A stretch of 64,000 nt of DNA. Origin: a virus. Both the position numbers and the translations under genes were made by a program. The stretch covers positions 1 through 64,000 of the IMG/VR virus record IMGVR_UViG_3300035681_000001, one strand, 5' to 3'. The notes beneath the pieces were generated by a model. The model saw only the letters and a list, made by a program, of their open reading frames with translations. It did not search any database and was not told the origin of the DNA. This document shows positions 6,162-38,401 of the stretch, one piece after another. Positions within the stretch are counted from its first letter, which is position 1, and each line of letters opens with the position of its first letter.

Positions 6162-6497
6162 TTGATGCTCAAAAAACTAATCATTGGTTTAGCGTTGTCT
6201 TTGAGTGTTGCGCAACCAGCTAAAGCCTCAACAGCTGAAGCTAGTGTTTACGACGAATGGTATGATGGCCGACCTACTGCTTCAGGTGAAGCCTTTCGTT
6301 ACCACGGTTTATCAGCAGCACACCCTTGGTTGCGATTCGGTCGATATCGAGTTAGTTACCGAAACCGCTCAGTAACAGTACGGCTTAACGATCGACTCAA
6401 CCTGCCTAGGCTAGACCTGTCTTGTGGAGCAGCCTATCATTTATTTAAGTCTTGCTACACATTAAAAACAGTTACTTATCAGTGGATTGGTCCGTAG
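6162..6497 (+). CDS. rlpA: RlpA-family (DPBB) lytic transglycosylase with signal peptide
   Basis: ASVY..WYDGRPTASGE.F....LSAAHPWL.FG...RV....RSVTVRLNDR...LDLS..AA is the RlpA signature. The N-terminus is a hydrophobic signal-like sequence ending AKA. Confidence 0.85.
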   Translation: MMLKKLIIGLALSLSVAQPAKASTAEASVYDEWYDGRPTASGEAFRYHGLSAAHPWLRFGRYRVSYRNRSVTVRLNDRLNLPRLDLSCGAAYHLFKSCYTLKTVTYQWIGP

Positions 6498-6699
6498 GTA
6501 AGCGAGGGTCTGGCCTTTTTAAAGCAGTGTACACTGCACCCCCACCAGCAACCGCACCTAGTATCCCTGATACTAGGTTTTCTACTATACGGCCGTACTG
6601 GGGTCTGAACTCCTTGTTTTGTTGGGCTATTACAGTAGCTCCTGAAATCCCTATCACTAAAGCTGCAGCCAAACCAGTCTGCAAAATATTAGACCCCAT
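6472..6699 (-). CDS. small membrane protein (holin-like candidate)
   Basis: 75 aa with two hydrophobic segments. Convergent with rlpA and overlapping its 3' end. Confidence 0.55.
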   Translation of the reverse strand: MGSNILQTGLAAALVIGISGATVIAQQNKEFRPQYGRIVENLVSGILGAVAGGGAVYTALKRPDPRLPTDQSTDK

Positions 6700-6803: not shown

Positions 6804-7289
6804 TTGTCTATTCTCTACTCCAGATTTATGTCTGACGCCTACGTTCCTGAAGAAGAAATGGTATCTCCACAAGTAGCGAAGCTAACTCGGTTCGCAGCAC
6901 AACTCCTACAAGCTAGTTACGAAAAAGTAGTCATTGGATTTAAAGGTAGCTCTGGTGAAGCTCAATTTGATGAACCACTGTTTTACCGAGTTGGTATTCC
7001 CGAAACGCAACCTTCTAAAGTAGATGAAGTTGCAGAGCTGATCGAATTTAGTGCTGAAGAAATTAGCAGTATCCTTAGTGATACTGCACAACGAGTACTA
7101 AACAACAGATTCTCGTACTGGTCTGACATGAATGGTGCTTACGGTATTGTTAGTTTCCACCCTGCAGATATGGGAGTCTATGTTAAAATTTATCGTTTGG
7201 TCCCTAAAGGTGATGAAGCAAATGTGACCCGCACCAGCCTCGAAGCTTTGTATCCTAAAGCTCGTCGGGTAGCTACTGCTCAAGACTGA
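6804..7289 (+). CDS. DUF6878-like protein
   Basis: VVIGFKGSSGEAQF... and YWSDMNGAYGIVSF resemble my recollection of DUF6878 (xFxGSGDSG...WENNDGAYG). Immediately upstream of the Ubl gene. Confidence 0.5.
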   Translation: MSILYSRFMSDAYVPEEEMVSPQVAKLTRFAAQLLQASYEKVVIGFKGSSGEAQFDEPLFYRVGIPETQPSKVDEVAELIEFSAEEISSILSDTAQRVLNNRFSYWSDMNGAYGIVSFHPADMGVYVKIYRLVPKGDEANVTRTSLEALYPKARRVATAQD

Positions 7290-7310
7290 ACCCTACCAAT
7301 TAACCTTATA

Positions 7311-7329
7311 GGGGGGTAACCCCCTTTTT
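7311..7329 (+). terminator. intrinsic terminator-like hairpin
   Basis: GGGGG-GTAA-CCCCC-TTTTT, ending 3 nt before the Ubl ATG. Confidence 0.6.
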
Positions 7330-7332
7330 CCT

Positions 7333-7668
7333 ATGCCAAATATCTTTGAGACTCGAAATAACAGAATCGACGAAGAAGATTTCACCGACGAACCGGTACA
7401 GTCTACCTTTGATGGTGAACGACAAGTCACCTTGCAATATGGAACGGAAAAAGTTGCAGTAGACGTTACTAGCCCTAGTTACATGGGTAAAAACCTAGGT
7501 CAGATTGCTGCTATGCGAGCTGACGAACTAGGCTTTAGTCGTGAGGCTACGCGTTTGAACTATCGTCTGGCAGGCAGCTACGTAGAATCTACATTTATCC
7601 CTAAACCAGGCCAAGTCTTTGTGCTCAGTACCAGCGCTGACACTAAAGGCGACCCTAAAGCTCAGTAA
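7333..7668 (+). CDS. prokaryotic ubiquitin-like protein (beta-grasp) with C-terminal TKG and a 5-aa propeptide
   Basis: An acidic N-terminal arm is followed by a Ubl-like pattern (VTLQYG...LGQIAAMRADELG...NYRLAG...PKPGQVFVL). It ends STSADTKG-DPKAQ, and xTKG is the typical terminus of Prok-Ub/PRTRC-C Ubls. Confidence 0.7.
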   Translation: MPNIFETRNNRIDEEDFTDEPVQSTFDGERQVTLQYGTEKVAVDVTSPSYMGKNLGQIAAMRADELGFSREATRLNYRLAGSYVESTFIPKPGQVFVLSTSADTKGDPKAQ

Positions 7669-7684
7669 AAACTAAGGGCATACG

Positions 7685-7710
7685 TAGCACTTTACGTGAG
7701 TAAAGTGCTA
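7685..7710 (+). promoter_or_regulatory. perfect 11-bp hairpin with GNRA loop, overlapping a candidate extended -10 (TGCTATTGT, 7706-7714)
   Basis: TAGCACTTTAC-GTGA-GTAAAGTGCTA lies between the Ubl and sigma genes. Confidence 0.5.
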
Positions 7711-7734
7711 TTGTATGTCTATTCGTTTAGTGTT

Positions 7735-9618
7735 ATGTCAGGATTCAGCCGGGACAGTTTTGGAGCCTACCTCAAAGAAATAGGTAGATTTGACCTTTTA
7801 AACAAAAAAGACGAACAAGAACTAGGCGCGTTAGTGCAACAGGGTGAAGTCCTTTTAAAGCTAAAAAAGGAAAACCCTAACCACAGCCTAGAACAGTGGG
7901 CGGTCCAAGCCGGCATGACAGTAAAAGAACTACAGCGTGTCTTAACGCGTGCTAAAAGAGCTAAGGATAAACTCATCAAACACAACCTACGCCTAGTGGT
8001 TTCTATAGCCAAAAGATACACTAATCGTGGGCTGTCTATGGTTGACTTAGTACAAGAAGGTACTATCGGACTCAACCGAGCAGCTGAAAAGTTTGATCCT
8101 ACTAAAGGATTTAAGTTTTCTACTTACTCTTGCGTACCCTTAACCACTGAGATCTTCACCCAACGCGGCTGGTTAAAGTACCACGAACTTGAACCCGGAG
8201 ACCAAACCATTGGATACGACCAAGGTGTCAGTAAGTGGACCCCTATTTTAGGTAGCAAAGTTTACGACACAGCTCCACTAGTAAGTTTTGGAGACTCTAG
8301 GTGGTCTGTTCAATGCACTGACCAACACAAATGGTTAGTCAACGACCAAGGTACTACTAAACTCATACCTTTAAAAGAAATTGATCTTAATAAAAAAGCT
8401 CGTTTAGTAACTTCTGCTCCTTTTGTAGGAGGTAACAGCCCTTTAACTGAAACTGAAGCCGCCGCACTAGCTTGGATTCTTTACGGTATCGTTGACTACG
8501 AAGAACTCAAGTCTGAAAGAATTCAAATCCGATGCCCAGTAGAGTTCACCGAAGAGGTACTAAACCTATTCCAACAGTATTCTTCAGTAGTTTCTGCGCA
8601 GCCAGGTAGTGTTGTAATAAATAACAAAGCACTAGCAAAAATTTGGGAAAAATCAGGCCTAGTAAAACAGGACCTATTAGCTTTAGTAGTAGGCCTAAAA
8701 CCTGAGGCACGCAAAGCGTGGTTTGAAGTTTTTGCTAAAACCCAAACAGTAGCACTTAGATCCAAAGAAAAAGTAGCTGCGCTAGCACTTTGTGCTTTCT
8801 TGGAGGGTTACAGCGAGGTTCAGGTAGAGGGAAGATGGGTCCAATACAAGATTAAAGACTACAACGTCCAAAAAACCTACGCTGAAATCTTTAATCTTCC
8901 ATTTACAGTAGAACCCGCTGGTACTGCTGCAGTTTGGTGCCCTAATACTGAATTAGGTACTTGGACTGCTCGCACTGCTGAAGGTCAAGTGTTCTTGACA
9001 GGTAATACTTGGTGGATACGTCAGGGCATTACACGTGCAGTAGCAGTTCACTCACGAACCATTAGGTTACCAGTACACATATTTGAACGACTAAATAAGA
9101 TCAAAAAGGCTACTAGAGAGCTCTACCAGCAAACAGGCAAACAACCCAGCATATTTCAGATCGCCACTCAATTAAAAGAAAAACCCAAAAAGATTTTACA
9201 ACTAATGGAGTATGCAAAAACAACAAAGTCAATTGACACGTTGTTGAGTGACACCAATGGTACCAGTTGCTTGGCTGATTTCTTAGTAGACGATGTAACC
9301 CTCAGCCCAGAACAGCAAGTAGAAAAAGAACTAAATGCAGCTTACACACAAAAGCTACTGAAAGGTCTCACCGAACAAGAAACTAAGATTATCAAAGACC
9401 GTTATGGTATTGGACTAGAAGAACCTATTCCCCTAAAAGATATTGGTGTAGCGTTGGGCATCACTACTGAAAGAGTAAGACAAATAGAACGTCGAGCTTT
9501 GGAAAAACTAAGAGAAACTCATCTATTCCATGAAAAGCACCGCCCGAAACTCAAAAGCTCTAAGCAAATTAAAACGCAAAGTAAACCACTAGAACCTAAA
9601 GCTGAACTAGACTCGTAA
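7735..9618 (+). CDS. rpoD: RpoD-like sigma-70 factor, intein-containing precursor
   Basis: Contains region 1.2 (DSFGAYLKEIGR), region 2 (NLRLVVSIAKRY...DLVQEGTIGLNRAAEKFDPTKGFKFSTY/TWWIRQGITRA) and region 4 (TTERVRQIERRALEKLR). ATG 7735 is preferred over GTG 7696. Confidence 0.92.
   Translation: MSGFSRDSFGAYLKEIGRFDLLNKKDEQELGALVQQGEVLLKLKKENPNHSLEQWAVQAGMTVKELQRVLTRAKRAKDKLIKHNLRLVVSIAKRYTNRGLSMVDLVQEGTIGLNRAAEKFDPTKGFKFSTYSCVPLTTEIFTQRGWLKYHELEPGDQTIGYDQGVSKWTPILGSKVYDTAPLVSFGDSRWSVQCTDQHKWLVNDQGTTKLIPLKEIDLNKKARLVTSAPFVGGNSPLTETEAAALAWILYGIVDYEELKSERIQIRCPVEFTEEVLNLFQQYSSVVSAQPGSVVINNKALAKIWEKSGLVKQDLLALVVGLKPEARKAWFEVFAKTQTVALRSKEKVAALALCAFLEGYSEVQVEGRWVQYKIKDYNVQKTYAEIFNLPFTVEPAGTAAVWCPNTELGTWTARTAEGQVFLTGNTWWIRQGITRAVAVHSRTIRLPVHIFERLNKIKKATRELYQQTGKQPSIFQIATQLKEKPKKILQLMEYAKTTKSIDTLLSDTNGTSCLADFLVDDVTLSPEQQVEKELNAAYTQKLLKGLTEQETKIIKDRYGIGLEEPIPLKDIGVALGITTERVRQIERRALEKLRETHLFHEKHRPKLKSSKQIKTQSKPLEPKAELDS
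8131..9006 (+). mobile_element. intein (292 aa) with a degenerate LAGLIDADG-like core
   Basis: Starts CVPLTTEIFTQRGW and ends GQVFLTGN, with Thr at +1. Removal restores KFSTYS-TWWIRQ of sigma regions 2.3/2.4. Confidence 0.93.
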
Positions 9619-31258: not shown

Positions 31259-31771
31259 ATGTTACGAAACTGTCCATTAGAGTACTACAACAATTGTGCT
31301 GGAGCAGGAAAAGATTGTCGGGTCTGTAGTGCAGGTTCAGGTCTTAAAAACAAGTGCTTATACCAACCACTAGTACCGCCTGAACACCACTGTTACTACC
31401 ACCCGTTACAACAACCTGATAATCCCTTAGTAATAGAAAAAGAAAAGCGAAAAAAAATACTTAAAAGAGCGCAAGCTACAGAACGTACCGTAGAGCAAGA
31501 AATCATAAAAGGTACTTTGAGGTCGGGAGCAGCTTTAGGGGATGGTGACCACTTGCTGTTAGATAGTATCCGCCAAGAAGTCAAAGACCGAGGCGCCCGA
31601 AGTTCATGGAACCTGAGTTGGAGCGAGTATACTAAAGGCTGCCGGCAGGGCATCCAAGTTTACGCTGTTTCCATACAGCCTCCGAGCGGCCCTCGTAAAA
31701 CAATGTATATGATGGAAGAACACGTATTCACCGCCTTGCTAGCTAGTATTCAAGCATCTCAACATGAGTGA
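31259..31771 (+). CDS. PD-(D/E)xK nuclease (resolvase-like) with a Cys-rich N-terminus
   Basis: ERTV...SGA..GDGD......QEVK catalytic pattern. Confidence 0.6.
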   Translation: MLRNCPLEYYNNCAGAGKDCRVCSAGSGLKNKCLYQPLVPPEHHCYYHPLQQPDNPLVIEKEKRKKILKRAQATERTVEQEIIKGTLRSGAALGDGDHLLLDSIRQEVKDRGARSSWNLSWSEYTKGCRQGIQVYAVSIQPPSGPRKTMYMMEEHVFTALLASIQASQHE

Positions 31772-32780
31772 CTTAAGTGATTATCTAAAGAAGAAATATA
31801 AAGACACCGTCAAAGTCGGAGATGACTTTCCTCCTATTAAGAGAATTTCTACCGGCATTTTAGGACTAGACATCATCTTAGGAGGTGGGCTACCGTTAGG
31901 TCGAATAGGTGAAATATTCGGTATTGAGTCAGGGGGTAAAACAGCTACCTCGTTGGCTTTGATCAAAGCAGCTCAACTACAAGGTATCGAGCCTGTTTTT
32001 ATAGATATGGAAAGAACCTTAGACCCAGACCAAGTAAACAGAACGGGTATTGATAACGAGTTGTTCCACCGAGCTTTTCCTAACTACGGAGAAGAAGCTA
32101 TTGATCTAGGTCTAGAAGCAGCTACTGCAGGCTCTAAGTTAATCATTATTGATTCTGTACCAGGCTTAACCCCTAAGTCCACAGAAGAAAAAGTCGAAAA
32201 AGACTCGGAAGCTAGGTCTATGGGAGCCGTAGCCGGGCTGCTTACTAGACTAATGGGAAAAATCATCAAAGGTGTTGAAACCTCAGAATGCTCTTGGATA
32301 TTCCTAAACCAAGTTAGAGACAAAATGAACTCTCCTTATGGAGGGGTCCACACACCAGGTGGTCACGCTAAAGATCATATGTGTTCTTGGCGTTTACAAA
32401 TCACACACGCTATTCAAGAAAAAGATAAAGAAGGCGTAATTACCTCGTACATCAAAGGCCTAAAAAACAAGACTGCCCCAGCAGGTCTTACTGGGGAACT
32501 AGTAATAGAAAAAGGTATCGTAAACGCAGCGGCTTCCTTAGTAGATGGTGCTATTCGAGCTGGGCTCTTAGAAAAGGCGGGCAGTTGGATCAAGTTCTCT
32601 AATGAAGTAGTAGAAGAATTCAGCCTACCCAAAGCCAACCTAGCTCAAGGTAGTGTAAAGGCCGGCGCTGAACTGCTAGCTAACCCTGAGTTGTACAAGA
32701 TCCTATACAACCGCTCTTTGATAGCTAGCGGTGTACTGCCTGACCGAATTCCTAATTATTGGAAACTGACTAATGAGTGA
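31764..32780 (+). CDS. recA: RecA recombinase
   Basis: ISTG...LDIILGGGLP.GRI.EIFG.ESGGKT, FIDME..LDP, IIIDSV, FLNQVR and PGG.A motifs. Confidence 0.95.
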   Translation: MSDLSDYLKKKYKDTVKVGDDFPPIKRISTGILGLDIILGGGLPLGRIGEIFGIESGGKTATSLALIKAAQLQGIEPVFIDMERTLDPDQVNRTGIDNELFHRAFPNYGEEAIDLGLEAATAGSKLIIIDSVPGLTPKSTEEKVEKDSEARSMGAVAGLLTRLMGKIIKGVETSECSWIFLNQVRDKMNSPYGGVHTPGGHAKDHMCSWRLQITHAIQEKDKEGVITSYIKGLKNKTAPAGLTGELVIEKGIVNAAASLVDGAIRAGLLEKAGSWIKFSNEVVEEFSLPKANLAQGSVKAGAELLANPELYKILYNRSLIASGVLPDRIPNYWKLTNE

Positions 32781-33027
32781 CTATAGCTCGCTAGAAACAC
32801 CAAAACTAGAACCAGCCGACCAGCAGTTTTTCACTTACGCAGCCCGAGAAGCTGACCTAGCCACAGCTGAATGTCGACAAGCTAAAGCGCTATTTGAGGA
32901 AGCAGCTGAAAAGCAAAGAACCAAAGTAAACGCTATACAAGAATTTTCTACTTACTTAACTAAAAAATACCAACTAACAGACGATCAAGACATCGACCTA
33001 GACGGCAACATCATTAATCGAACTTAA
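32773..33027 (+). CDS. hypothetical protein
   Basis: 84 aa, coupled to recA and polA. Confidence 0.7.
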   Translation: MSDYSSLETPKLEPADQQFFTYAAREADLATAECRQAKALFEEAAEKQRTKVNAIQEFSTYLTKKYQLTDDQDIDLDGNIINRT

Positions 33028-34380
33028 GTGGACTTTCTGTATTGTAACGACCTCGGTACTTATCGTACTGGGGTTTTATCTTTGGGGTGTGAGCCTTTAG
33101 CGTTAGACACAGAAACTATGGTCCGACCTGAATATGAAGGTCGAGGCGGCAGTGCTCTGGACCCTCATACCGGTAGGATATCTCTAGTTATAGTCCAGCA
33201 CTTAAATCAAATACCGATCATCTTTGATCTGGTTTGTTTAGAAGCTCTAGGTTATGACCCAGAACCGCTAGTTAAAGCTTTAGACACAGCCGAGTACTTA
33301 CTAGGAGCCAACATCAAGTTTGATGCCAAACAACTCCGAGGAACTTTAGGTTACACACCTAAGAAACTTAGAGATGTGATGCTGCTAGGTAAACTAATCA
33401 GCAACGCTACTGGATCTAAAGCTGGTAAAGCAGTAGGGCACTCGCTAGGAGACCTAACGCGTGAATACCTAAACGTCCACTTGGCAGGTAAAGGCACTTT
33501 ACAAAAGTCTACCTGGGCTACCGGAGTAGAATCTCGTACGTTAACTAACGAGTGGTGGTTAGAAAAACTAACTTACGCAGCCAACGACGTAGCTTACCTA
33601 TTTCCCTTACAAGCTGTAATGCTACCGATACTACAAACACCACTACCCGATTCTCCACTTACTCAAACAGGTAACACTGGAGCATGGGGGTTTGGTATGA
33701 CCATAGCAGTACAACGAGAGTTTAGGTTGTTACCAGTAACAGCCGAGATGGAATACAACGGGCTGCCTGTTTCTAAAGACTTTATGACTGCTTTTCAAGA
33801 AGCAGTCAAAGACTCTCTGGATTCTTTAGGGGTATATCTGTCCATAGAACTAAAACTAGACACTCCTCAAAAAGACTGGTCCGGGCGGTTAGTGCCTTCT
33901 TTAAAAGCCTTAAAAGTACTGCGCTCAGCTAGTGGGTTACTAGACCTCATACGTAAAGCTCTAGACTTCCAGAAAATAGACAACGTTCAAGCAGCCGTGC
34001 TGCAACGTATGCTGTCCATCCTAGACGCACTGGCTGCCGCTAGCACTGCAGACGATAGCACACCCACTACAGGTGAGCTGTTTATTAACGAAGACGAAGA
34101 AACCTTATACTCAGAATTAACCGAACTAGAACACTGTAAGTTAATAGCAGCCTCTCCTATAGTCCAGGCTATTTTGGACTTTAAACGGCTGACTAAACAA
34201 GATGGAATGGATTTGCGTAAATACATAAACCCAGCTACTGGTAGGATCCATCCTAGTTACAGTCAAATAGGTGCTGCTACCGGACGGTTTGCTAGTTCCG
34301 GGCCTAATGCCCAACAAATCTCCAACAAAACCAAGGTATTACTAGATGGGTTCCAAACCCTTGGATTGGCCTCTACGTAA
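33028..34380 (+). CDS. polA: family A DNA polymerase, N-terminal part (3'-5' exonuclease plus thumb)
   Basis: LALDTET (ExoI), GANIKFD (ExoII), YAANDV (ExoIII), IHPSY.Q.GAATGRF.SSGPN. Stop codon at 34378-34380. Confidence 0.9.
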   Translation: MDFLYCNDLGTYRTGVLSLGCEPLALDTETMVRPEYEGRGGSALDPHTGRISLVIVQHLNQIPIIFDLVCLEALGYDPEPLVKALDTAEYLLGANIKFDAKQLRGTLGYTPKKLRDVMLLGKLISNATGSKAGKAVGHSLGDLTREYLNVHLAGKGTLQKSTWATGVESRTLTNEWWLEKLTYAANDVAYLFPLQAVMLPILQTPLPDSPLTQTGNTGAWGFGMTIAVQREFRLLPVTAEMEYNGLPVSKDFMTAFQEAVKDSLDSLGVYLSIELKLDTPQKDWSGRLVPSLKALKVLRSASGLLDLIRKALDFQKIDNVQAAVLQRMLSILDALAAASTADDSTPTTGELFINEDEETLYSELTELEHCKLIAASPIVQAILDFKRLTKQDGMDLRKYINPATGRIHPSYSQIGAATGRFASSGPNAQQISNKTKVLLDGFQTLGLAST

Positions 34381-34702
34381 AAGGTCAATAGGCTTTGAAA
34401 ACAACCTCATATTAAAAGAGCTGCTACTGCTAGGGGCCTTTAAAGAAAAAAACGCTATAGCTTGGCCCTCAGACACTGGCTTGACAGAATCAGAAACTAA
34501 AACACTACTAGAGTCCTTACGTAAGAAGAACCTTATTCGCGGCCGAGCACCTTATAAGCTAACCACTAAAGGAAAGAAAATAGTAGCCGATCACTACCAC
34601 CGTTTGTTAGCTGAGTATGAATCTAGTAGAACCCAACTACCAGTTTCTGGCAACACCCAGACAATCATTCGTAACGAAGGGGAAAGTTTGGATTTCAGTT
34701 GA
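34346..34702 (+). CDS. winged-helix-like protein inserted between the polA parts
   Basis: ETKTLLESLRKKNLIR...YKLTTKGK is a MarR/wHTH-like wing motif. It overlaps both pol ORFs in the third frame. Confidence 0.55.
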   Translation: MGSKPLDWPLRKRSIGFENNLILKELLLLGAFKEKNAIAWPSDTGLTESETKTLLESLRKKNLIRGRAPYKLTTKGKKIVADHYHRLLAEYESSRTQLPVSGNTQTIIRNEGESLDFS

Positions 34703-36476
34703 CTTTTCAGGTCAAGAGCTAATGGTAGCTACAGCCTGGTCAAAAGATCCGGCTATGGAGCGAGCTTTTACAGAACCTGAAGTCTTAACCTTACCTGATG
34801 GTACTACTTACAAAAACCCATACGCTGACCTGCACACACTAACGGCAGTTAAGTGCTGTGCCCCAGCATTATTCCAGGGAGTCCCAGAACACGAGTGGGT
34901 AAGTAACGCTAAAGAAAACGGATCTAGACACAACGGTAAAACTACAAACTTTGGGATTATCTTTGATCAAACAGCAGAATCTCTATCACTACTCAACCAC
35001 GTTAAACTGACTGAAACTGAGCAATGGGTAAAAGGCCACAAGCAAACCTACGCAGGTTATCACCACTGGGCTGAAGAATACGGAGCTATAGCTGCCGCTC
35101 GCGGCTTTGCTGTTAGCCCGGTGTCTAAAGCTATTCGCTGGGTAGATGAAGAAAACTCCAAAGGTGGTGGGGAATCGCCAGCTAGAGCTGCGGTTAATTA
35201 TGCCATCCAAGGGGAATCTAGTATGATAACCAAGGAATGTTTGATCAGGTTATATGAAACTTTGCCACCAGAAATAAGAATACTAAATACAGTCCACGAT
35301 AGATTTTGTCGTGGTTAAATAACTTTAATTGCTGGAAACTCCTTAGAGCTTAACTCACCACAACGTAGTCGGCAACGACAAGCGTGACGGTTCAAAAAGA
35401 GTTATGATTGGGTCTAGTACTTTGTCTGACTAGCAGTGTAAGACTGAAAGCTCCACTTGTATTGGTAACAGCTAATGGGACAGGGACCAATCCACTCAAG
35501 AAAAGCAGGAATGCTCTTTTTAGAGAGGAATATTTTACCTTTACCGTCAGTTCGTGAGCGAAAACCCAACGACTTGAGTTGAATCACAAGTCGTTGTCGT
35601 TCAGCCAATGTAAAAGAATGGGCTGCAAATGCAATTTGTCTTAGGTATCCGTTGCAGGAGTCAAAGCCTCCATCACCGATGTACCACATAGATGCAGCTA
35701 AAGGGGTTAGTTGTAAATCCCGAGGAAGAATCTTTTTCTTCTCCGGATACCAGCGATGCCAAAAAGGTATGAGAAAATCCGATCTCAATGAGTCTACTTG
35801 GTAGGTTACACCTGTTGAGTAACCATTAGGTTTAGACTGGAGGTTAGGAGAAAAAGGAACGGATTTGCCTAGCTGGGCTCTAACCCAAATAGAAAAGTCC
35901 TTTTCTTTACAGTTATAACCAAATCTCGGGCGCCCTAAAGGTGTTTTCGAGTAGTTGGTTAAATAACCATCTCCTAACAGCAGACCATCCAGTAAGCTTC
36001 TCATTAAGCTAGCAACATTTGCTTAAGTTTAGCACTATCGGTTATACAGAAGAAAAATCCTGATGGACAATCAGCAGCCAAGGGTCTAGGCTGTAACCAG
36101 CTTAGATCAAGGTTCATCGGCTATCGCGGAAGCGAGTAGGACTCAAGAGAGTTCGAAACGGGTTACTAGTGAAAACTAGAAGATATAGTCAGAACTTTTG
36201 CGAAAGCAAAAGAAGCCTTACGGAATCGGTAAGGCTGCAACACTAACGGAGATCAATTTTGAGGCGCCAGGCCGATGTTGGCTAGACTTAGATCGCTCTA
36301 AATTTGATAATAACTTACTAATAAACCCTGTGTTTGCTTACGATGAACAAGCTCTAGCTACAGCAGAACGCATTACGCAATTAATGGTAAACACTGAAAC
36401 CGAGTTCTTTCAGGCTGCCGGCTCACCTATTCAAGGTCGAGCCGAATACGCTATAGCCCCTTATTGGAAACACTAG
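34617..36476 (+). CDS. polA: family A DNA polymerase, C-terminal part; join(34617..35300,36249..36476)
   Basis: Motif A VDFSGQEL, motif B R...KTTNFGII, A.NYAIQG, and motif C restored by splicing as TVHD|EINFE. Confidence 0.88.
35414..36004 (-). CDS. LAGLIDADG homing endonuclease, antisense within the polA intron
   Basis: LLDGLLLGDGYL and LTPLAASMWYIGDGG motifs (LAGLIDADG_2-like). Confidence 0.88.
   Translation of the reverse strand: MRSLLDGLLLGDGYLTNYSKTPLGRPRFGYNCKEKDFSIWVRAQLGKSVPFSPNLQSKPNGYSTGVTYQVDSLRSDFLIPFWHRWYPEKKKILPRDLQLTPLAASMWYIGDGGFDSCNGYLRQIAFAAHSFTLAERQRLVIQLKSLGFRSRTDGKGKIFLSKKSIPAFLEWIGPCPISCYQYKWSFQSYTASQTKY
36026..36034 (-). promoter_or_regulatory. candidate extended -10 (TGCTAAACT) for the antisense endonuclease gene
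   Basis: TGnTAnnnT match about 21 nt upstream of ATG 36004. Confidence 0.3.
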
Positions 36477-36494
36477 TACTCACGCACCTAAGCA

Positions 36495-36830
36495 ATGGTA
36501 GAAATCCAATTCAAAGCTCTAACCACCGTAACAGTGGCCATTACGGAACCTGTTTACTCTAAAATAAGCAGTGTACGCTCTAAATATAACAAACTAGAAT
36601 CGTTCCGTAGGTGGGATGGTGAGCAGTTTTTAATAATAGAAAAGAAAACCACTTCTAAAGGAGTGGTGTCTGTAACCCTTACAAAAGAGATTTATAAAGC
36701 CTCACTAATAAAAAGCGAAGAAGCCTCAGAGCAAATTCTAGGTAAAGGTAAGTACGCACTCACTAAAGAAGAATTCTATACAGAACTAAAGGCAGCCATC
36801 GGACCTTTCTTAGCTACTATGGAAGGCTAA
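36495..36830 (+). CDS. hypothetical protein
   Basis: 111-aa ORF in the replication array. Confidence 0.7.
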   Translation: MVEIQFKALTTVTVAITEPVYSKISSVRSKYNKLESFRRWDGEQFLIIEKKTTSKGVVSVTLTKEIYKASLIKSEEASEQILGKGKYALTKEEFYTELKAAIGPFLATMEG

Positions 36831-37030
36831 TGCCGCTACACCTGGTAACCTATGAACTTACCGATACTACAATAAGTTATTATCCGAAGACTAAATTAGT
36901 GTTAGTTGATTGTGCTGACGAAGAAGAAGCGCTGGCCTTACTAGAAACCAAACACCCTATTACTTATTGTGGCGTTGAAATTCTAGAGTTCGAGCCAGTA
37001 TTAAGTAACCAAAACACAAAGAAAACCTAA
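36830..37030 (+). CDS. hypothetical protein
   Basis: 66 aa with a TAATG overlap. Confidence 0.6.
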   Translation: MPLHLVTYELTDTTISYYPKTKLVLVDCADEEEALALLETKHPITYCGVEILEFEPVLSNQNTKKT

Positions 37031-37066
37031 AAATATATAAAACCAAAATCCAAAAAACCAAAACCA

Positions 37067-38401
37067 ATGAGTGCCTCACGAATTGATTTAGCTCAAGTTA
37101 CAGACTTAACTGAAGCTACTAGGTGGGTGTATGACCCCGACAAAGAACTATCTGTAGGTGCTGCTTTAAGGCATGTACACCTAGAGCAAGTTAGTAATGA
37201 AAAAGTAGCCCTGACGGCTTACGCTACAGGTCAAGCTTGGTTGCGCCGGCTAGCACCAGCTAGTGGTGTAATAGGTACCCAGTACCTCTATGATGGAGAA
37301 GACTTGATCTCCCGAGTAGCAAACCAACAGATCTGGCGTAAGTCTTCTTTACGTATAAGTCAGAACCGTAACGGATCACTAAAACTAGAATGCGTACAAC
37401 GTATTGAAGCTGACGGAACTGTAGTTTCTGCAGGAAATATCAACCTCAATACGTACTCAGGTGACTTAGATGATTTCTCAATACCCGACGCCAGTGATTA
37501 CGTATTAGTAGCTCACACTGATTTAGGGTACGACTTTAAGAGTCTAGCTAGGGTAGCTGGAGAATATTCCGCTCTAAGGGGAGATTCAGCTAACCGAGCA
37601 GTATGGTTGTGCCTAGAACAAAACCTACGTCTAAGCGTAACCGAGCGGGCTTCTGACCGAGGTATTGGGCTGTTAACTCACACCTTACCTACTACTGTCG
37701 TACACCCTATACGTCTAGGCTTTCAAGGCCGGCACCTTAATAAAATAGCAGACGTAGTAGAAGAAAGCCCAGTACTTACTATCCACGTTGATTCTTTAGA
37801 CAACCCTACACGAGTAAGGTTTAGTGGTTTTGGTGGGTGGGTAGACCTACCGGTAGTAGCCGAATACCACTGTAGAGCTCTTTCTAGGGGAGCTATGGGT
37901 GTGTTTCTAGGTGAAAACTACACACGTACTGAATCTGAATCCGTAATTTTCAACGTAGAAGACCTACAAGACGGCATAGCTATCCAAGCTCCTAAGAAAG
38001 GAGCCACTCGCAATGACGTAGTATTAGAACTACAAGACCAAAAACTGTTGGTATCAAAGCGTTCTGACATACGTAGGTCTGAGCTTTCTACCATCCCGTT
38101 ACATGAAGCTAGCACCGTAGAGTGGACAGACGTAGTAGTAGATCACACTTACTTAACAGATGGTGTAACTGCTTTAGATTCTTTCTTAAAAGCAGCTGAC
38201 AAAAGAGCACGGTTACCTGAACTAACTGACGAACCTACTACACCTATAAACGTAAGGTTGGTCTCAGTAACACAATCAGTGTCTAGTAGTAACGTGCATT
38301 TGTTGCTAATCCGACCCGCTATCGACCAAGACTACGAGTGTCAAGTAGCACTTATAGTAAACACCAAAGCCCAAACTAATGACTACAACGAAGCGGACTA
38401 A
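37067..38401 (+). CDS. putative sliding-clamp (DnaN/beta-like) protein
   Basis: 444 aa, beta-rich, with weak clamp-like patterns (LRHVHLEQ...VALTAYATG; RLGFQGRHLNKIADVV..SPVL.I). It lies near polA and the dnaX-like gene. The function call is low confidence. Confidence 0.35.
   Translation: MSASRIDLAQVTDLTEATRWVYDPDKELSVGAALRHVHLEQVSNEKVALTAYATGQAWLRRLAPASGVIGTQYLYDGEDLISRVANQQIWRKSSLRISQNRNGSLKLECVQRIEADGTVVSAGNINLNTYSGDLDDFSIPDASDYVLVAHTDLGYDFKSLARVAGEYSALRGDSANRAVWLCLEQNLRLSVTERASDRGIGLLTHTLPTTVVHPIRLGFQGRHLNKIADVVEESPVLTIHVDSLDNPTRVRFSGFGGWVDLPVVAEYHCRALSRGAMGVFLGENYTRTESESVIFNVEDLQDGIAIQAPKKGATRNDVVLELQDQKLLVSKRSDIRRSELSTIPLHEASTVEWTDVVVDHTYLTDGVTALDSFLKAADKRARLPELTDEPTTPINVRLVSVTQSVSSSNVHLLLIRPAIDQDYECQVALIVNTKAQTNDYNEAD

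Follow-up and report, generated by a model that had tools for sequence, protein, structure and literature searches.

A family A DNA polymerase gene split inside its polymerase domain and accompanied by a conserved winged-helix gene in a clade of uncultured phages

We analysed the locus of a family A DNA polymerase (PolA) in the IMG/VR virus record IMGVR_UViG_3300035681_000001, which belongs to a large, cyanophage-like phage of about 190 kb. The window, as we call the whole stretch of DNA under analysis, comprises the first 64 kb of this 189,763-bp record. The polymerase was found to be encoded in two parts, with a small gene for a winged helix-turn-helix (wHTH) protein placed between them and overlapping both. 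All features lie on the plus strand unless stated otherwise. PolA part 1 (33028..34380), taken from the list of open reading frames (ORFs), encodes a 3'-5' exonuclease domain and the N-terminal portion of the polymerase domain with the sequences TGR and PNAQQIS (motif 2). It ends with a TAA stop 18 codons past PNAQQIS, which leaves a tail of 18 residues. The wHTH gene of 118 amino acids (34346..34702), identified from the ORF list and its homologues, starts in the +1 frame inside part 1, and the raw sequence shows an overlap of 35 nt (34346..34380); an AAGG is found about 10 nt 5' of its ATG. The frame of part 2 is open from 34611, has its own ATG at 34617 and carries PRQSF and DFSGQE. According to the ORF list its start overlaps the tail of the wHTH gene by 86 nt (34617..34702), and the ATG at 34617 is kept in the close relative L002. 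The three ORFs thus occupy all three forward frames, with every step being +1. Between the cistrons no promoter or terminator signal stood out. An earlier sequence-only reading of this DNA had given the stop at 34380, the opening at 34611, the 118-residue ORF, the overlaps of 35 and 86 nt and the use of three frames; judged by the ORF list and the raw sequence, these were exact.

Using Pfam, part 1 was found to match DNA_pol_A_exo1 (E 5.7e-11, 43 bits, cut-off 23.6) and DNA_pol_A (E 1.3e-12, 47.9 bits, cut-off 34.3), and part 2 DNA_pol_A (E 1.4e-23, 83.9 bits). With exonuclease and polymerase domains exceeding the Pfam gathering scores, the enzyme belongs to the family A polymerases. Part 1 covers positions 69-136 of the DNA_pol_A profile and part 2 positions 142-336, while about 5 positions are absent at the break. 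The end of part 1 aligns with residues 522-588 of Taq polymerase, PNAQQISNKT corresponding to Taq 579-588, and the break falls at Taq 588-593, in the loop leading from motif 2 (PNxQQ) to motif A. Part 2 spans motifs B and C in the Klenow/Taq alignment and is itself interrupted. Its exon 1 (34617..35300), defined by Pfam, by tblastn against uninterrupted relatives and by the Klenow/Taq alignment, contains a head of 13 residues, PRQSF, motif A (DFSGQE), motif B (KTTNFG) and motif C as far as VHD. There, a group I intron (35301..36248) splits motif C (VHD/E). Its boundaries were derived from the exon ends in tblastn, RF00028 of Rfam matched at 35895-36212 (28 bits, E 2.4e-4), and in blastn its 5' 90 nt were similar to introns from phages of Staphylococcus, Bacillus, Pseudomonas and Serratia. 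Antisense within the intron lies an ORF for a LAGLIDADG homing endonuclease (35414..36004, minus strand; Pfam LAGLIDADG_2, E 4.1e-17). The last exon (36249..36476) extends from EINFE to the C-terminal YWKH and showed 45% identity to residues 231-305 of part 2 of the relative L022 in tblastn. Joining 35300 to 36249 restores motif C, and all three catalytic motifs, A (DFSGQE), B (KTTNFG) and C (HDE), are intact.

The coding status of the middle ORF was assessed from the proportions of nonsynonymous (pN) and synonymous (pS) differences between the window and L002. For the stretch of the wHTH ORF that overlaps neither half (34381-34616) a pN of 0.125 and a pS of 0.835 were obtained (pN/pS 0.15), compared to a ratio near 0.95 for a control frame of the same DNA. 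The corresponding ratios for the polymerase were 0.17 for part 1 and 0.27 for exon 1 of part 2. The wHTH ORF is therefore protein-coding, and purifying selection acts on it as strongly as on the polymerase. Its tail in the 86-nt overlap is relaxed (pN/pS 0.78; ratio of nonsynonymous to synonymous substitution rates, dN/dS, 0.70). The identical protein was found on 7 contigs, and relatives with 87% and 69-72% identity occur in independent assemblies. The middle ORF is a real gene.

The comparison with relatives for which the sequence-only reading had called revealed the same layout in eight other genomes. Together with the window, the same break after PNxQQ was observed in nine distinct uncultured genomes, the others being L002, G002 (L003/L013), L004, L018, L021, L022/L023, L028 and L031. 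Their part 1 proteins share about 35-85% identity with one another, and in the PolA tree the nine split polymerases form a single clade (support 99/98). As the layout recurs in eight other genomes and the exact ORF is present on 7 contigs, it did not arise by chance. The L002 locus is 83% identical to the window with the same three-frame layout, and differs from it by substitutions and 3-nt indels only. In the window, L002, L022, L028 and L031 the middle gene is followed immediately by part 2. In L018 and L021 three same-strand genes lie between the halves, in L004 two minus-strand genes, and in G002 the halves are about 46 kb apart, with the wHTH gene immediately upstream of part 2 and an ATGA overlap between the two. 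The junction of part 1 and the wHTH gene also varies. Overlaps of 35, 35, 23 and 38 nt at +1 were found, along with a 12-nt gap after the stop in the same frame (L018) and a 1-nt overlap at +2 (L021).

These observations bear on the proposal of the sequence-only reading that assembly errors had produced the frame changes. Assembly or sequencing indels that broke a single gene, or a polymerase decaying as a pseudogene, can for practical purposes be dismissed. Nothing speaks for such an origin except the frame changes themselves. The identical wHTH protein is present on 7 contigs and related ones in independent assemblies, the indels relative to L002 are all multiples of three, and nine genomes have the same layout. 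The polymerase has moreover kept its catalytic motifs intact, with low pN/pS values for part 1 and for exon 1 of part 2.

A further proposal was that two programmed +1 ribosomal frameshifts yield one chain, with the wHTH domain inserted in the loop between motif 2 and motif A. In line with it, the window, L002, L022 and L004 have the wHTH gene in the +1 frame with respect to part 1, and the first three also have part 2 in the +1 frame with respect to the wHTH gene. The 35-nt overlap is moreover the most conserved DNA of the region, the alignment of 34317-34380 with L002 showing just 4 differences; this unusual degree of conservation is explained by dual coding. The proposal nevertheless found no support in the relatives, where the spacing and frame of part 1 and the wHTH gene vary. 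An in-frame stop with a 12-nt gap (L018), a +2 relation (L021) and the -1 relation given by the ATGA between the wHTH gene and part 2 of G002 do not fit +1 shifts, and in L004, L018, L021 and G002 one of the two junctions does not exist, other genes intervening; in three genomes it is the wHTH gene and part 2 that are not contiguous. Every cistron retains its own ATG, and in 34346-34380 no known +1 slippery pattern was visible. We consider frameshifting very improbable.

An intron was the other means of restoring a continuous gene to be considered. The stretch 34335-34650 would then be an intron unknown to Rfam, or a degenerate group I intron, which carries the wHTH ORF and is removed by splicing. 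Such a reading finds some encouragement in the group I intron of part 2, which is genuine and interrupts the same gene 650 nt downstream of 34335-34650, and in another polymerase lineage, where an insert resembling an intron, in one contig with a LAGLIDADG ORF and in another without, lies five codons upstream of the split site. The downstream intron is, however, separate from the split, and it was the only match in an Rfam scan of 33000-37200 at E <= 1. Neither RF00028 nor any other family was matched in 34321-34702, where the sequence-only reading had also seen no intron core. RNA folding was no better than that of shuffled sequences (minimum free energy z = +0.2), the substitution pattern is that of a protein and unlike that of paired RNA, and no cis-splicing could join halves that lie 46 kb from each other or have minus-strand genes between them. 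A pair of inverted repeats (34335-34353 and 34621-34639), which flank the starts of the wHTH gene and of part 2, was considered as ends of an element or as long-range RNA pairing and rejected, since L002, at 83% identity, does not preserve it and pairs this short are expected by chance. An intron at the break is thus hardly credible. A split intein was likewise rejected: the tail of part 1 has 18 residues without Cys and the head of part 2 has 13 residues without HN-C/S/T, and both are too short. With the halves unlinked or interrupted by other genes in relatives, neither cis-splicing nor frameshifting can join them, and with no joining in cis the polymerase must work as separate polypeptides. 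We conclude that the gene fission inside the polymerase domain is genuine and ancient, and reflects no assembly error, intron or frameshift site.

Several insertions were observed in and around these polymerase genes. L002 has an extra insert at the motif B region, past KITNFG (6938-7661), which is absent from the window and contains an ORF (7085-7540) for a Cys-rich, HNH-like protein of 151 amino acids. Part 2 of G002 (L013 510-1295, minus strand) is interrupted right past motif A (DYSSQ/) by an insert with a 261-residue ORF of the HTH-LAGLIDADG type. In-frame inteins are located right past TGR of part 1 in L003 (about 6290-6680, a mini-intein of about 125 residues) and in L028 (ORF 6956-9373, an intein of about 330 residues), about 10 residues upstream of the fission point. 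The polymerase of the split clade is unusually rich in mobile elements. In the unrelated PolA lineage mentioned above, the gene is interrupted at SSNP/NLQQIP in L041 (4418-5448) and L044 (4450-4931); the insert of L041 holds a 258-residue LAGLIDADG ORF and that of L044 has no ORF, a pattern of mobile introns, and both were undetected by Rfam at the gathering score.

The wHTH-like character that the sequence-only reading had ascribed to the 118-residue ORF was confirmed by an AlphaFold2 model and its structural matches to MarR-type proteins. The conserved core comprises about residues 15-93 of the window protein; across the family it spans some 65 residues, with a basic wing (APYKLTKKG-like) at its end, while N- and C-terminal extensions are confined to the closest relatives. 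Modelled from a 40-sequence alignment, the core reached a predicted local distance difference test score (pLDDT) of 87-92, and its predicted H1-strand-H-H-wing topology is that of a winged helix-turn-helix fold. VIA-align superimposed the model on the MarR-like wHTH protein 3oop with Z 12.3 and a root-mean-square deviation of 1.8 Å over 81 residues. Overall, 111 representative chains matched at Z >= 8, the top-listed ones being nearly all wHTH proteins, and the best Foldseek matches were likewise of the MarR type.

Using a profile of eight members, 39 cluster representatives were found at E < 1e-3 among 1.84 billion proteins. The family is basic (median isoelectric point 9.4), its members are nearly all stand-alone proteins of 62-108 residues, and an HMMER scan over all lengths gave no fusion to a polymerase. 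In curated Pfam no member reached the threshold. Below it, HTH_45 was matched in 21 of the 40 members (E no better than 6e-5; 15.7 bits for the window protein against a cut-off of 25.5) and MarR in one of the 40 (no better than 1.7e-4). PHROGs gave no match for the window protein, and its neighbours in the ESM Atlas were generic wHTH proteins only. Cultured phages have no detectable homologue: tblastn of two members against 50,697 phage records returned nothing or one match at E 0.9. Of 22 pattern matches from a metagenome scan with the wHTH alignment none was confirmed. No nuclease domain (HNH, GIY-YIG, LAGLIDADG) occurs among the 25 Pfam families most matched by the 40 members (31 families were matched in all), and the inserted ORF is therefore no free-standing homing endonuclease of the mobE type. 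An origin of the wHTH protein from a homing endonuclease was also rejected, as no profile similarity to the neighbouring LAGLIDADG proteins was found. One distant member of 239 residues (P0029, L019 1150-1869) consists of the wHTH core and about 150 residues of unknown type; on its 2.2-kb contig no PolA is visible.

The wHTH gene adjoins a PolA half in all nine long contigs, mostly overlapping or abutting part 1. After the halves had separated, it stayed with part 2 in G002 and with part 1 in L004, L018 and L021. A scan of IMG/VR returned 70 PolA loci, for which a neighbourhood of 9 kb was checked. Three loci of the split clade carry the wHTH gene, compared to none of the 65 loci with an unsplit PolA. 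No homologue was found anywhere in the genomes of the phages Ma-LMM01, My-WqHQDG and MEP401. Linkage of the wHTH gene is exclusive to the split polymerases of this clade.

The closest cultured relatives of the split polymerases are those of the Microcystis phage Ma-LMM01/MaMV group (Fukuivirus), with 26-27% identity. In Ma-LMM01 PolA is cut in the same loop, past NAQQIS and before the strand preceding VDFSSQE, and a small ORF overlaps both halves in +1/+1 frames. The gene products concerned are gp180 (NC_008562; L016 1538-3903), which is annotated as 3'-5' exonuclease and also holds the first part of the polymerase domain, and gp178, annotated as 'DNA polymerase'; gp179 overlaps both. The 51-residue gp179, however, is unrelated to the wHTH family, and with an hhalign probability of 0.1% its interpretation as a diverged wHTH protein was rejected. 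A survey of replicases that treats Ma-LMM01 says nothing of the split (PMC3201878). In our PolA tree Ma-LMM01 pairs with the unsplit polymerase of My-WqHQDG (support 100/99), as sister to the wHTH clade. From this grouping either two independent fissions or one fission with re-fusion follows. The differing inserted ORFs favour two events, and the Ma-LMM01 split is probably separate. A split at a nearby position is known from the OM43 phages MEP401 and MEP402 (Zobellviridae), where ORF13 and ORF15 encode PolA and a small ORF14 of unknown function lies between them; the authors leave the split unexplained and the possibility of an intron open (PMC10580990). As in the window, the MEP401 polymerase domain is divided into exonuclease plus N-terminal polymerase and C-terminal polymerase, with an ORF of about 77 residues between. 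The cut, however, lies about 10 residues further downstream, directly in front of motif A and past the IKTLF strand; ORF14 does not belong to the wHTH family, and a 43-kb phage with another polymerase lineage is concerned. The loop between motif 2 and motif A is probably a recurrent fission site.

Essential phage enzymes cut into two cistrons by an insert at a conserved site are known from nrdA/mobE of Aeromonas phage Aeh1 and from genes 43A/43B of phages 25 and 44RR. NrdA-a and NrdA-b of Aeh1 reassemble, and their tails are essential (PMC3045599); gp43A and gp43B of phage 25 co-purify with polymerase activity (PMC2988022). In these systems neither RNA nor protein splicing is involved in bringing the pieces together, and tails newly formed at the termini act as interaction elements (PMC3045599, PMC2988022). 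There, however, the enzymes are a class I ribonucleotide reductase and a family B polymerase, and what interrupts the gene is either an untranslated spacer or a homing endonuclease (mobE, seg-like), whereas here PolA is interrupted by a nuclease-free wHTH gene throughout a deep clade. The sequence-only reading had compared the locus with Aeh1 and suggested a two-subunit polymerase with an inserted gene. The inserted gene and the two subunits stand, given the conserved split site, the unlinked halves and the purifying selection on the ORF; the likeness to mobE fell with the missing nuclease domain. For family A polymerases, T7-like cyanophages (S-SBP1, S-TIP37) have been described as the first with an exonuclease/polymerase split by Czernecki et al. 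(2023; PMC10201439). They too have a phage PolA made of two interacting gene products (PMC10201439). Their split is at the domain boundary and without a conserved inserted gene, whereas the cut described here crosses the palm: part 1 holds DNA_pol_A positions 69-136 beyond its exonuclease domain. In LUZ24 an exonuclease subunit, a 'DNA polymerase part II' and another piece called 'DNA polymerase' are likewise separate genes by annotation. No description of the wHTH family or of the split clade was found in the literature.

Taken together, a true fission of PolA into three cistrons, with halves that reassemble and a wHTH protein kept with the polymerase, is in our judgement the quite probable explanation of the locus. 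The cut lies in a short loop, with motif 2 (PNxQQ, Taq 579-585) on one side and, on the other, the strand that runs to the catalytic aspartate of motif A. Separate translation would yield three products: part 1 with the exonuclease, the thumb and the beginning of the palm, the basic wHTH protein, and part 2 with motifs A, B and C, whose expression also needs removal of the group I intron. The overlaps would serve the ordinary translational coupling of adjacent cistrons and not be recoding sites. The two halves are expected to reassemble non-covalently into one enzyme. An alternating hydrophobic segment past motif 2 and a second one before the PRxGF strand are present in all clade members and in the unsplit polymerase of the Microcoleus phage My-WqHQDG, in which a KDG turn joins the two segments (GKVVTLKDGRKTSL), as would be typical of a beta-hairpin. 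The two strands, continuous in My-WqHQDG, seem to be represented by KVLLDG... in the part 1 tail and by ...YQFLAT in the part 2 head, with the fission at the turn.

The wHTH gene may have come with the fission or caused it, and would have been retained since through working with the polymerase. In the Taq and Klenow structures, the loop between motif 2 and motif A sits where thumb and palm join, next to the minor groove of the primer-template duplex. From that position a basic wHTH domain could touch DNA. The protein may accordingly be a DNA-binding accessory subunit by the primer-template duplex, or may control the expression of the halves. Genomic linkage leads us to propose, tentatively, a role as polymerase accessory subunit; a purely regulatory or an unrelated role is only slightly less likely. 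The most far-reaching form of the idea appears rather unlikely to us. In it the wHTH protein is an obligatory third subunit of a three-piece replicase, located at the hairpin turn by the minor-groove track of the primer-template, where it clasps the halves and grips the duplex, and the loop is a recurrent permissive fission point, hit independently in the wHTH clade and in Ma-LMM01 and, close by, in MEP401. If true, the wHTH protein would be a built-in processivity or assembly factor of a kind undescribed for PolA.

We are aware of several points which weigh against such a partnership. In fold the wHTH protein comes closest to transcription regulators of the MarR, PadR and F93 types, and this suits an ordinary regulator equally well. 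All cases of linkage come from a single clade and amount to nearly one evolutionary observation. The distant members L019, L020 and L024, on contigs of 1.2-2.2 kb, have no PolA half in the few hundred visible bases. The Ma-LMM01 split has no wHTH gene, so a PolA cut at this loop evidently can exist without one. The hairpin was read from sequence pattern only, and the case for the wHTH protein as a subunit is one of genomic linkage. A less probable but serious alternative is that the split is real and the wHTH protein unconnected with the enzyme, being either an ordinary small phage transcription regulator or the domesticated DNA-binding remnant of the element that made the cut, which stays near the halves by inherited synteny. 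The best structural matches are MarR/PadR/HxlR/F93-type proteins, including the post-wing helix which those use to dimerise, and the region is a hot spot of mobile elements (the inteins of L003 and L028; the intron with or without a LAGLIDADG ORF of L041/L044), in agreement with such a history, as are the Ma-LMM01 cut and the three distant members. Mere synteny is, however, difficult to reconcile with the strong purifying selection on the gene across polymerases just 35% identical, with its position next to a half even where the halves have separated (part 2 in G002; part 1 in L004, L018 and L021) and with the coupling of its starts and stops to the halves. A remnant of the cutting element is opposed by the lack of similarity to the neighbouring homing endonucleases and of a nuclease domain.

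Concerning the surroundings of the split gene, a recA gene (31764-32780; Pfam 2e-39) is located two genes upstream of part 1. RecA is likewise found upstream of part 1 in L018, L021 and L022, and RecA-PolA thus constitutes a conserved replication/recombination module of the clade. Downstream, an ORF of 444 residues (37067-38401) had neither a Pfam match nor BLASTP similarity to Ma-LMM01 gp176.

Family A polymerases are textbook single-chain enzymes. Here the catalytic palm itself is cut, and the split has nonetheless been maintained throughout a deep clade of phages; it marks where the fold tolerates fission, which is useful for the engineering of split polymerases. Annotation pipelines call the halves 'exonuclease' and 'DNA polymerase' and miss their relationship. 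The companion wHTH family is uncharacterised and specific to the clade; should its members be true subunits, they would represent a new type of PolA accessory factor. The locus offers a natural case in which to study how the pieces of a fragmented essential enzyme come together, and a split PolA with a conserved, nuclease-free wHTH gene at the break adds to the theme of 'genes in pieces'.

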